From a bacterium (GTDB taxonomy: Bacteria; Patescibacteriota; Microgenomatia; Woykebacterales; RBG-16-39-9b), in assembly GCA_030704665.1 (NCBI GenBank), contig JAUYID010000009.1, positions 256,832 to 320,831 of the forward strand: a DNA stretch of 64,000 nucleotides, in the 5' to 3' direction. Both the position numbers and the translations under genes were made by a program. Below are positions 5,607 through 7,843 of the stretch, in pieces. Within the stretch, counting starts at the first letter, position 1; every line of letters begins with the position of its first letter. The notes below the pieces were generated by a model that was given only the letters and a program-made list of their open reading frames with translations, was not told the origin of the DNA and searched no databases.

Positions 5607-5725
5607 TAGTAGCTGATGTTTCCTACCGGAAACCAGCTACTGCGTGTCTTGAGCTCAAGCATAGTCTGACGACTAAGTTTTTCTGAAACGCAGAGCGCTT
5701 TAGCGATCTATTGGCTTGATCTTGG
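5607..5725 (+). repeat. left copy of ~118-bp inverted repeat pair
   Basis: Reverse complement aligns to 7727-7843 with near identity over ~75 nt (CCAAGATCAAGC.AATAGATCGCTAAAGCGCTCTGCGTTTC...GTCAGACTATGCTTGAGC). Distal ~35 nt forms a 15-bp hairpin (TAGTAGCTGATGTTTCC/GGAAACCAGCTACTA). Confidence 0.7.
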
Positions 5726-6029
5726 TATCTTTGGAATGATTAAATAGGCTTGCTGCGAATAAAGAGTTGGGAGAAAACAAAAAAGGCCAAGCCAAACGCT
5801 TAGTCCTTTTTGTAGCCCTCGAAACCAAATGATTTCTGCCCTAGCAAGTTAGATTACTGAGTCAATCCTCCGCATCTTTAGGTGGGAACTCTGGCTCCTA
5901 GCCCAAGGGATAGGCGCACTCCGAGTCTGCCCGAATGTGGAAATTTAACAAAGAAGAATTGCTTACAGCCACTCTCCTTGTAGGGCAACTTTTTTATAGC
6001 ACAATTTGTGAAAAATTCAAAGAGACAAG

Positions 6030-6680
6030 CTAGCCCCCGGCAATGATGTTGAGGAAGAGACGAACCAAAAAGCCGAGAATCGGAGTGATGAAGTAGCCAC
6101 CAAAGAAAAAAAGTCCGAGCAAAAGGATCGGACCGTACTGTTCCATAGCTGCCCATTGCGCAGCTATGGATTTCGGTAAAACTCCTGTTACGACTTTGAA
6201 ACCATCTAGTGGAGGGATAGGAATGAGGTTAAAGAAGGCCAGAGTCAAATTTAAAATAATTAAAAGAAGGAAAATCGACTCGGTATAAAGATTAAAACTG
6301 AAGAAACGATAGCCTAGACCCGCAAGAGCCGCCAGAAGAAAGTTGGAGGCTGGTCCGGCGAGGGAAATGAGGGCTGCATCGCGGCGCGGATTCTTCAAAT
6401 TCCAGGGGTTAAATGGAGTTGGCTTGGCCCAACCAAAGAGGAAACCGGTTTGTAGCAAAATTAAAATCAAAGGCAAAATGATGGTTCCGAAAAGGTCAAT
6501 GTGGTTAATAGGGTTCAGACTGACCCGTCCTTGAGCTCGCGCCGTTGGATCACCGAGTTTATCAGCCACCCAGGCGTGAGCCGCCTCATGGAGGCTGATT
6601 GAGAGAGCCAAAGCACCAATAGCAAGGCTCAAATTTAAAAATATTTCCGAGAGATTACCACTAGCTAAACCGTTGAGCAT
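6030..6680 (-). CDS. peptidase M50 family (site-2 protease-like) membrane metalloprotease
   Basis: 216 aa. HEAAH zinc motif in a TM helix, multiple TM segments. Confidence 0.7.
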   Translation of the reverse strand: MLNGLASGNLSEIFLNLSLAIGALALSISLHEAAHAWVADKLGDPTARAQGRVSLNPINHIDLFGTIILPLILILLQTGFLFGWAKPTPFNPWNLKNPRRDAALISLAGPASNFLLAALAGLGYRFFSFNLYTESIFLLLIILNLTLAFFNLIPIPPLDGFKVVTGVLPKSIAAQWAAMEQYGPILLLGLFFFGGYFITPILGFLVRLFLNIIAGG

Positions 6681-6733
6681 ACAAGCTTAAGTATACATTT
6701 CTTGGCAAGCTATGTTACAATCTCACGCGAACT

Positions 6734-6790
6734 GGTCATCCTGAATGAAATGAAGGATCTGAGATTCTTCGCTCCCGCTCAGAATGACAT
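6734..6790. repeat. MITE-like palindromic element copy (GTCATCCTGA ... TCAGAATGACA termini)
   Basis: TGGTCATCCTGAATGAAATGAAGGATCTGAGATTCTTCGCTCCCGCTCAGAATGACAT. Shares GAAGGATCT..GAGATTCTTCG core with the copy at 26105-26170. Lies in the rpmB 5' UTR. Confidence 0.55.
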
Positions 6791-6809
6791 TTTTAGTTTT
6801 CTAAATTTT

Positions 6810-7172
6810 ATGTATATTTGTGAACGTTGTGGAAAAGGTCTGCAGGTGGGGATGAATGTTTCCCACTCTCACCGCCGAACCAAAAAACGCAGTTTGCCGA
6901 ATCTTCACTTGACTAGCCTTTACATTGGAGGCAAGAGAGTGACCGCTCGCTACTGCACCAAATGTGTCCGCATCATGCGGGCTGCTTATCCATACACCCA
7001 GCCAACGGCTGATATGGTAGTTGTTAAAGATGTGAAGGAAAGTCCCAAAGCGAAAGTTCACGAACCCAAAAAAGAAGTAAAAGAAACCAAAAAGGGGGGC
7101 GAGCTGAAAGCCGAAGATATTGAAGATATTGTTGAAACTACCTCTGAGCCAGAAGCAGTCCCCGCGAGCTAA
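6810..7172 (+). CDS. rpmB: ribosomal protein L28 with Lys/Glu-rich C-terminal extension
   Basis: MYICERCGKG...VSHSHRRTKKRSLPNLH matches the L28 core. About 50 aa charged tail. Start taken at the internal Met of ORF 6702-7172. Confidence 0.7.
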   Translation: MYICERCGKGLQVGMNVSHSHRRTKKRSLPNLHLTSLYIGGKRVTARYCTKCVRIMRAAYPYTQPTADMVVVKDVKESPKAKVHEPKKEVKETKKGGELKAEDIEDIVETTSEPEAVPAS

Positions 7173-7236
7173 TTTGCAATTTCCCCAAACAAAAGTATAG
7201 AATCCCTCCAACTACAGCATAGAAGGAGAGTGTGTT

Positions 7237-7656
7237 ATGGATCAACAAGAGCTACAGGTAATGACCGTGGCCGTGGCCGTCAATGGGGAAAAGATGCGCA
7301 ATCTTCTCCTGCGGCAGAACGACCCACGCAATCCCAACTGGTTCTGGGGGTTGGGAAAGATCGGCAAGAACGAGGTCTGCGTCGTTGTTGGTGGGAGACC
7401 TGACGGCAAGAAGACAGCTGTCTCGTTCAGCTTTACTCAAGAGCGTGGCCATCGGATTGAGGGCCGCGACCTACCTGTCAGAGGGATCGGCGACTGGCAT
7501 GTGGCCAGTTGGAATGTTCGTACTCCGTCTCGAACCAGCTTTCCGGGAGAACCGTCACTGCTACGTCACAGCCTACGAGTGAGCCTGATCCGAGTCTCCA
7601 AGCCACACCTGCCCCGCGAGCGCAATGCTGAGAAGAGGGTGTCGAAGAAGAGGTAG
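7237..7656 (+). CDS. hypothetical protein (GC-rich islet)
   Basis: 139 aa. AAGGAG RBS 8 nt upstream of ATG. GC-rich by eye. Confidence 0.45.
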   Translation: MDQQELQVMTVAVAVNGEKMRNLLLRQNDPRNPNWFWGLGKIGKNEVCVVVGGRPDGKKTAVSFSFTQERGHRIEGRDLPVRGIGDWHVASWNVRTPSRTSFPGEPSLLRHSLRVSLIRVSKPHLPRERNAEKRVSKKR

Positions 7657-7726
7657 AGAAGAAACTCCAAACCACACAACCGAGGGTCGCGTCCCCCGAC
7701 CGACCCTCTCCCTAACCCAAGATCAA

Positions 7727-7843
7727 GCAAATAGATCGCTAAAGCGCTCTGCGTTTCCAAAAACTAAGTGTCAGACTATGCTTGAGCGCAGGATTCGCAG
7801 TAGCTAATCTTCTCTAGAAGATATTAGCTACGAGGATCCTATA
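7727..7843 (-). repeat. right copy of ~118-bp inverted repeat pair
   Basis: Partner of 5607-5725. Distal end forms a different 15-bp hairpin (GTAGCTAATCTTC tcta GAAGATATTAGCTAC) at the equivalent position. Confidence 0.7.

Follow-up and report, generated by a model that had tools for sequence, protein, structure and literature searches.

The 64,000-nucleotide stretch of contig JAUYID010000009.1 (assembly GCA_030704665.1, positions 256,832 to 320,831) analyzed here, which we call the window, comes from a bacterium of the Woykebacterales and contains a pair of inverted repeat arms about 2 kb apart. On balance, we regard these arms as probably being two copies of a promoter-upstream module of about 160 bp, forming a two-member family of putative mobile promoters (PMPs). 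The left copy would drive a gene, here named gene A, leftwards, and the right copy would drive gene B, together with a small membrane open reading frame (ORF), rightwards; the two genes are non-homologous and lineage-specific, rich in G+C at third codon positions (GC3) and endowed with hydrophobic N-termini, and a conserved core separates them. Ahead of each promoter the arms retain three constrained parts, namely an imperfect hairpin of 22 bp (about -43 to -93), a block of 18 nt and a TA-flanked micro-repeat (about -114 to -155). The inverted layout would then be a by-product of two genes diverging from the core and not a device for recombination. The striking "invertible segment" of 2 kb is thereby corrected to a housekeeping core between two copies of a promoter module, and the case appears to be a small concrete example of promoter reuse for the expression of newly acquired orphan genes in a reduced genome of the Candidate Phyla Radiation (CPR).

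The arms occupy positions 5566-5727 and 7717-7878, about 162 nt each, and are reverse complements of one another: blastn aligns 160 nt at 80.0% identity (E 8e-34), and the mean column identity is 81% when the left arm is aligned by MAFFT with the reverse complement of the right one. In this alignment the similarity begins at TATAGCATA (5566 / 7878) and stops at CTTGATCTTGG (5727 / 7717). It is unevenly distributed; in fact, the repeat search gives 72% over 116 nt in the outer portions (5566-5681/7759-7874) and 94% over 47 nt in the inner ones (5679-5725/7717-7763). A 28-mer, GAAACGCAGAGCGCTTTAGCGATCTATT, is common to both arms without any mismatch, where the expectation from shuffled sequences is 0. 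The inverted repeat described by an earlier, sequence-only reading is thus real and far above chance, but its extent of about 118 bp was underestimated, since the outer limits of the arms are 5566 and 7878, and the inner limit of the right arm is 7717 instead of 7727. Read outwards, that is on the minus strand for the left arm and on the plus strand for the right one, both arms show the same order of parts: micro-repeat, conserved block, hairpin and promoter. The conserved block of 18 nt, GCTCAAGCATAGTCTGAC, does not differ between the arms (5653..5670, plus strand; 7770..7787, minus strand), and according to folding the left copy could form, together with 5709-5720, a long-range stem enclosing the micro-repeat. 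The arm, its 21-nt box and the signature of the hairpin are each present twice in the window. The same 4.7 kb around the repeat, identically arranged, was recovered in an independent Logan assembly (SRR13727534, contig L001), and no further copy of the whole arm emerged from scans of GTDB genomes and JGI metagenomes queried with a 20-mer of the arm, so the complete pair of 162-nt arms is known from the window and its Logan twin only.

Each arm terminates outwards in a sigma-70-like promoter, as indicated by motif scanning and MAFFT alignment. The left one, TTGACT-17-TATAAT on the minus strand (5564..5592), has 11 of 12 consensus matches and an extended -10 (TGcTATAAT); the right one, TTGACT-17-TATATT on the plus strand (7848..7876), has 10 of 12 and an extended -10 as well. 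These are the two best promoter matches in the interval 4800-8800, both directed outwards and both with a TG-extended -10. Both arms have TTGACTTT at the -35 and TATGCTATA at the extended -10 without any change, while the spacer of 17 nt and the sequence beyond the -10 have diverged. Arm similarity ceases at the -10 box, and the repeat unit therefore ends at the predicted transcription start. Preservation of the -35 and -10 elements with divergence of spacer and downstream sequence is, judged from this alignment, the footprint of a working promoter, and promoter activity of the arm ends is predicted from the motif matches and from this footprint. The sequence TGCTATAAT is a recurrent extended -10 of the window, with 16 matches at up to one mismatch against 7.2 expected; one copy belongs to the promoter of a tRNA operon (4830), and another, which has one mismatch, precedes a small RNA gene that is conserved (5993).

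A long hairpin lies next to each -35 box. In the left arm it is a palindrome of 51 nt (5600..5650) with 22 pairs and a 2-nt AT bulge, ending 8 nt upstream of the -35 (folding and pair analysis); in the right arm (7790..7840) the mid-stem GTAGCT/AGCTAC and the bulge are the same, and it is at the base and the apex that the stem has changed in a compensatory way. Folding energies are -28.7/-28.4 kcal/mol for the left hairpin and -23.7/-18.7 kcal/mol for the right one, with z-scores from -9.4 to -3.7, which answers positively the question of stability raised by the sequence-only reading. When the two hairpins are aligned without gaps, 14 of the 22 pairs are invariant, 6 have compensatory changes on both sides, and the right arm has lost 2; pairing holds in 95.5% of the cells, a value that drops to 48% or less if the 3' partners are shifted by 1-3 columns. 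The hairpin is also the most diverged part of the arm, with about 18 of 51 positions differing, versus 94% identity in the inner 47 nt. Because divergence is high and yet pairing and imperfections are retained, these data argue for selection on a specific fold, either a folded single strand or a cruciform, and not on sequence alone. Repair of a quasi-palindrome would tend to remove bulges, and as the sole origin of the hairpin it is therefore disfavoured. The proposal that covariation here reflects a selected structure is accordingly upheld, with 6 of 22 pairs compensatory and both the bulge and a T.G wobble pair kept; the stem had been taken for one of 15 bp, which is too short, and the two copies, sharing mid-stem, AT bulge and T.G pair, are not "completely different" in sequence as had been stated. 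Most likely the hairpin would serve as a binding site for a structure-specific protein or as an insulator against read-through from the core genes.

PMPs are defined as stretches of at least 50 nt, at least 80% identical, upstream of coding sequences that lack homology to each other (PMC3488235); pairs are their commonest form, making up 68% of families (PMC3488235), and a role in switching on silent or acquired genes has been suggested for PMPs (Matus-Garcia, Nijveen and van Passel 2012, NAR 40:10032, PMC3488235). The arms share with them the main trait of being similar non-coding stretches upstream of non-homologous genes in one genome: they align over 160 nt at 80.0%, the downstream genes A and B reach a best E of only 0.45 in BLASTP and are hence non-homologous, and the neighbours on the other side (small RNA gene and M50 protease gene on the left, ORF139 on the right) are non-homologous too, the similarity ending at 5727 and 7717. 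Unlike typical PMPs, the conserved stretch extends to about 170 nt upstream of the predicted start and includes a covarying hairpin and a micro-repeat, its copies are old and diverged (80%) rather than near-identical, and they form a divergent pair 2 kb apart. Since the cis elements are common to both, genes A and B would probably be co-regulated.

Gene A (5029..5505, minus strand) lies behind the left promoter, has a hydrophobic N-terminus and a GC3 of 0.76, and is preceded by AGGAGG 7 nt before a TTG start at 5505, with an alternative ATG at 5529. Gene B (7998..8603, plus strand, GC3 0.65) lies behind the right promoter, with GGAGG before its ATG at 7998 and a signal- or lipoprotein-like N-terminus, and is followed by a hydrophobic ORF of 66 aa (8616-8816). 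Their GC3 of 0.65-0.76 compares with about 0.40-0.50 in ordinary genes of the window and about 0.45 in the adjacent ones. Among 5.8 billion proteins no homologue of gene A was found and gene B matched only itself; neither has a Pfam match, and PADLOC defence models recognized none of the four inserted ORFs. At the position of gene A, the public gene call (L001 4016-4537, corresponding to window 4999-5520, plus strand) is an antisense ORF of 173 aa with a G+C content of 0.82 at first codon positions. The codon-position G+C profile, the ribosome-binding site and the predicted promoter favour the minus-strand gene A over this call, and it is probably because the antisense ORF was called that gene A did not find even itself in the protein database. 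Between the arms lies a conserved syntenic core (5783..7172), composed of a small RNA gene, an M50 protease gene (6030-6680, minus strand) and rpmB (6810-7172, plus strand), followed by the GC-rich, lineage-specific ORF139 (7237..7656, plus strand), for which only 7 distant relatives exist among 1.84 billion cluster representatives. ORFs with a GC3 of 0.62-0.76 are scattered along the window (2543-3610, 5029-5529, 7237-7656, 7998-8603, 28859-29590, 30379-30807, 48260-49174 and 61923-62426), and those close to the repeat, three in number, have no or almost no homologues. Their composition suggests that foreign genes were acquired repeatedly and that each came to stand behind a low-GC promoter of native type.

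The micro-repeat, which is the innermost part of the arms, is flanked by TA and consists of a 4-bp hairpin, GTTT..AAAC, followed by an invariant box, GCAGAGCGCTTTAGCGATC; it points inwards in both arms (5674..5710, plus strand; 7732..7766, minus strand). A 20-mer from the inner block was used to scan one genome per GTDB species, giving 7 loci, one of which (L004, on a GC-rich Carideicomes contig) looks like a chance match, and JGI metagenomes, giving 46 loci, 4 of which are coding chance matches (AERFSDL). The remaining matches comprise 44 distinct noncoding sequences, including the two arms of the window, and all contain the box (C)GCAGAGCGCTTTAGCGATC without deviation; in 37 of 44 it is followed by TA. 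Upstream of the box there is an xTAG tetranucleotide together with a hairpin that is short and variable: of 42 distinct instances, 26 have a perfect hairpin (at least 4 bp) whose end precedes the box by 0-2 nt, against 6.0 in shuffles (maximum 14 in 1000) and 3-9 with shifted anchors. This count comes from the stricter of two tests, the looser one, allowing long spans and G.U pairs, being uninformative. The hairpins range from CCAC-GAA-GTGG up to stems of 30-40 nt nested in the same closing pairs. All instances are intergenic and both orientations occur, with a mild bias towards the coding strand of the neighbours (about 22-24 same versus 13 opposite). Tandem arrays with a period of 33-35 nt are found upstream of dnaA and downstream of rpoC (L026, L034), some copies adjoin tRNA genes with duplicated tRNA 3' ends, and in four contigs (L007, L010, L027, L048) the micro-repeat lies in a 5' leader, between promoter and start codon.

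The carriers, about 40 unrelated contigs, apparently belong to CPR bacteria; the source labels, as given, are Woykebacteria, "Nanoarchaeia" and "uncultured Gammaproteobacteria" metagenome-assembled genomes. By blastn, the rest of the arm is absent from all these other loci. The sequence-only reading had considered two copies of a structured repeat family and advised looking for more of them; this proved right for the sub-element of 35 nt, while for the whole arm the scans gave no copies beyond the two of the window and its Logan twin. Neither the box nor the 18-nt block matched viral contigs. Rfam at gathering score recognized only 4 tRNAs in the whole window, with E up to 10 it gave nothing credible in 5400-8000, and it found nothing at the box in 25 other box-bearing loci. 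In the library searched, we also found no paper matching the box in either orientation, and a literature search on CPR repeats returned nothing relevant. Two candidate identities were discarded: a tRNA origin of the box, whose best ungapped match to 53 tRNAs is only 12/21, and a type III toxin-antitoxin nature of the tandem arrays of L026 and L034, which lie beside dnaA and rpoC with no toxin-like ORF. We tentatively suggest, as one possibility, that the arms are built from undescribed structured intergenic elements of CPR bacteria, possibly also of DPANN archaea, consisting of a covarying hairpin and the box GCAGAGCGCTTTAGCGATC, usually flanked by TA. Such elements would spread between distant lineages, nest, form tandem arrays, settle beside tRNA genes and be recognised by a conserved factor, and here they would have been co-opted, together with the long hairpin, to switch on acquired genes. 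A sequence of 19-22 nt perfectly conserved in about 40 unrelated metagenome contigs next to a variable hairpin is a lead to a new small repeat or RNA motif; it may be weightier than the promoter module itself, and is the more novel item. In three loci (L013 about 4830-5010, L025 about 800-960, L029 about 5600-5740) the box repeat lies within a larger conserved element, the outer stems of which apparently covary (GCAGCACGC...GCGTGCTAT versus GCAGGGCC...GGCCCTAT, and also ACCTAAAT...ATTTAGTT). From its sequence, this larger element may represent a structured RNA of a separate kind, into which the micro-repeat is inserted.

Several points weigh against the view of the arms as promoter modules. 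The arm promoters are motif matches only, and for a promoter of bacteria, 130 nt of constrained sequence before the -35 is a long stretch. With two copies the statistics of covariation are thin, and the observed values are reached by 7-11 of 500 shuffles. Between the centres of the conserved half-sites of the hairpin there are 26 bp, an unusual spacing for an operator in duplex DNA. The hairpin is moreover not a canonical terminator, because neither strand has a U-tract after it (the sequence that follows is ATAGTnnTTGAC read outwards and GAGCTCAAGC read inwards), and a terminator scan did not call it, while three other terminator-like hairpins of the window do carry U-tracts (5783-5812, 8935-8965, 30170-30205). 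In insulated terminator-promoter modules a stable hairpin likewise stands directly upstream of the -35 box, but there a U-tract is expected. Two further points concern transcription in the opposite direction: elsewhere the micro-repeat lies mostly on the coding strand of its neighbours, an orientation that in the arms points inwards, away from the promoters, and terminator-like hairpins are located 40-85 nt inside each arm. Both are compatible with an explanation that we find rather doubtful, in which each arm would encode an inward-transcribed small RNA of about 190-225 nt containing the hairpin, the 18-nt block and the micro-repeat and ending at the terminator-like hairpins inside the arms (5783-5812, plus strand; 7702-7677, minus strand), with the outward promoters as divergent partners. 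The first of these terminators is bidirectional, and the second has its U/G-rich tail on the minus strand, which is not the strand of ORF139; the position of the micro-repeat in 5' leaders of other contigs fits such RNAs as well. For the left arm, the inward strand has a good fold (-49 kcal/mol, z -4.9), but for the right arm it is not significantly better than shuffles (z -1.5); the promoter scan finds no inward promoter that the arms have in common, and beyond the outward -10 their sequences are unrelated. Rfam is without a match. Somewhat less doubtful, although still unlikely in our judgement, is that the arms are a mosaic of elements resembling repetitive extragenic palindromes (REPs) and bacterial interspersed mosaic elements (BIMEs), namely the long hairpin and the TA-flanked hairpin-box, which landed beside promoters by chance as selfish or structural DNA; the compensatory changes would then derive from a mechanism that maintains palindromes and not from gene regulation. 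REPs, BIMEs and REPINs of proteobacteria are imperfect palindromes of small size that lie between genes and have a conserved tetranucleotide, GTAG, where the hairpin begins. Their mosaic, nested and tandem arrangements and compensatory hairpin changes are like those of the arm elements, and the wide intergenic occurrence of the box in both orientations, its TA flank, the hairpin abutting it far above expectation and the xTAG at the 5' foot all count in favour of such a mosaic. Unlike REPs, the elements described here have an invariant box of 19-22 nt after a variable hairpin, a foot that is mostly TTAG or CTAG with TA flanking the element, a low copy number in the window (two copies only), hosts that are apparently CPR bacteria, and, in the Pfam screen of the ORFs within 10 kb, no gene for a REP-associated tyrosine transposase (RAYT) or IS200-like protein. 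Against the mosaic reading, the whole arm, promoter included, was duplicated as a unit with a sharp boundary at the -10, and bulge and T.G pair are conserved, which template-switch repair of a quasi-palindrome would not favour.

By comparison, we hold it very improbable that the arms are recombination sites of a phase-variable segment of 2 kb, or the ends of a composite mobile element carrying M50 and rpmB, as the sequence-only reading had envisaged. Homologous inversion could be sustained by two inverted arms of this size (about 160 bp) and similarity (up to 94%), and in promoter switches of the fimS/hin type inverted repeats likewise enclose a DNA segment beside the regulated genes. Those systems, however, have short repeats, a promoter inside the segment and a dedicated recombinase encoded nearby, whereas here the promoters are in the repeats and face outwards, and the interior is a housekeeping one. 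In fact, with an outward promoter in both arms an inversion would exchange like for like and alter nothing downstream. One gene of the interior, moreover, codes for an essential ribosomal protein, and the orientation of the interior is still the ancestral one, as comparison with relatives indicates. The M50 protease, whose named database matches are 51-60% identical, places the genome among CPR bacteria near Woykebacteria, and three contigs (L055, L056, L058) encode an M50 that is 64-66% identical. Def-fmt, identified from translation and from synteny with these relatives, rpmB and M50 are directly adjacent in L055 and L058, with no extra genes, and in L056 only an unannotated ORF of 81 aa lies between def-fmt and M50; the window also retains the PaaX-like, Wzy_C and MreB synteny of L055. 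The small RNA gene, M50 and rpmB of the window have the ancestral orientation relative to def-fmt. Because the repeat and the GC-rich genes are absent from all three relatives, the segments 7173-9061 (ORF139, right arm, gene B and small ORF) and about 4925-5782 (left arm and gene A) were added in this lineage. A Pfam scan of the ORFs located up to about 10 kb from the repeat detected GAF, SH3, asparaginase, M50, L28, PaaX-like, Wzy_C, MreB and MreC, and no recombinase or transposase. The arms have neither terminal inverted repeats nor a target duplication, their ends (TATAGCATA... and ...CTTGATCTTGG) not being inverted copies and their flanks differing, and the one independent assembly (L001) shows the same orientation. 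We also considered a mobile "cassette" made of arm, gene and an outer perfect repeat of 30 bp (4885-4914 / 8982-9011); it was rejected because the outer box belongs to a family of five copies in the window and a relative without the cassette carries it in the corresponding position downstream of def-fmt.

This outer box is a quasi-palindrome of 35 nt, TAGTACAAATTnnACGATCGTGnAnTTTTGTTGG, and its five copies in the window are all intergenic (4885-4914, minus; 8982-9011, plus; 12510-12544, plus; 24687-24721, minus; 53442-53474, plus); the two that form the 30-bp perfect inverted repeats lie outside the arm repeat. Since it is also found downstream of def-fmt in a relative (L056 2372-2410), the box is ancestral; an operator or a site resembling parS are possible identities. 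Two of the copies are followed, after about 20 nt (at 24730-24780 and 53500-53545), by a common motif, CACTCTGAA..(variable)..TGAAGAGTCTCGAG.

The small RNA gene of the core lies just downstream of M50 in the window (about 6010 to 5783, minus strand) and is conserved at this place in the three relatives (L055 6672-6900, L056 3782-4030, L058 3687-3960), with a length of about 165-215 nt. A promoter of its own, TTGAAT-17-TGCTATAAA, precedes it and an intrinsic terminator closes it, and its fold is a long closed rod (GCCCTAC...GTAGGGC) with 9 covarying pairs. This architecture is reminiscent of 6S RNA, and the sequence matches no Rfam family.

Other repeats were noticed elsewhere in the window. 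Between the promoter of the tRNA operon and tRNA-Thr(ggt), the minus strand of 4620-4830 contains three repeats of a tRNA 5' fragment (GCCGACATGGCTCAGTGGTAG...), two of which are broken after GGTAG by a hairpin insert of 30-40 nt ending in TAG, resembling an insertion with TAG duplication. A "TAG-hairpin-CTGYG" family linking the long hairpin of the arms to these tRNA-Thr fragment inserts (4664-4749) was tried and discarded, with 4 occurrences against 3.4 in shuffles. A terminator-like repeat, GAGAAACGACnnnnnnnnGGTCGTTTTTCTTTG, is present at 8921-8968 and 30159-30206 in two copies that are 81% identical, each just after an island of GC-rich genes. The second copy is immediately followed, at 30207-30275 and upstream of the GC-rich ORF 30379-30807, by a cloverleaf-like cluster of palindromes, in which ATGTCAT...ATGACAT surrounds three short hairpins.

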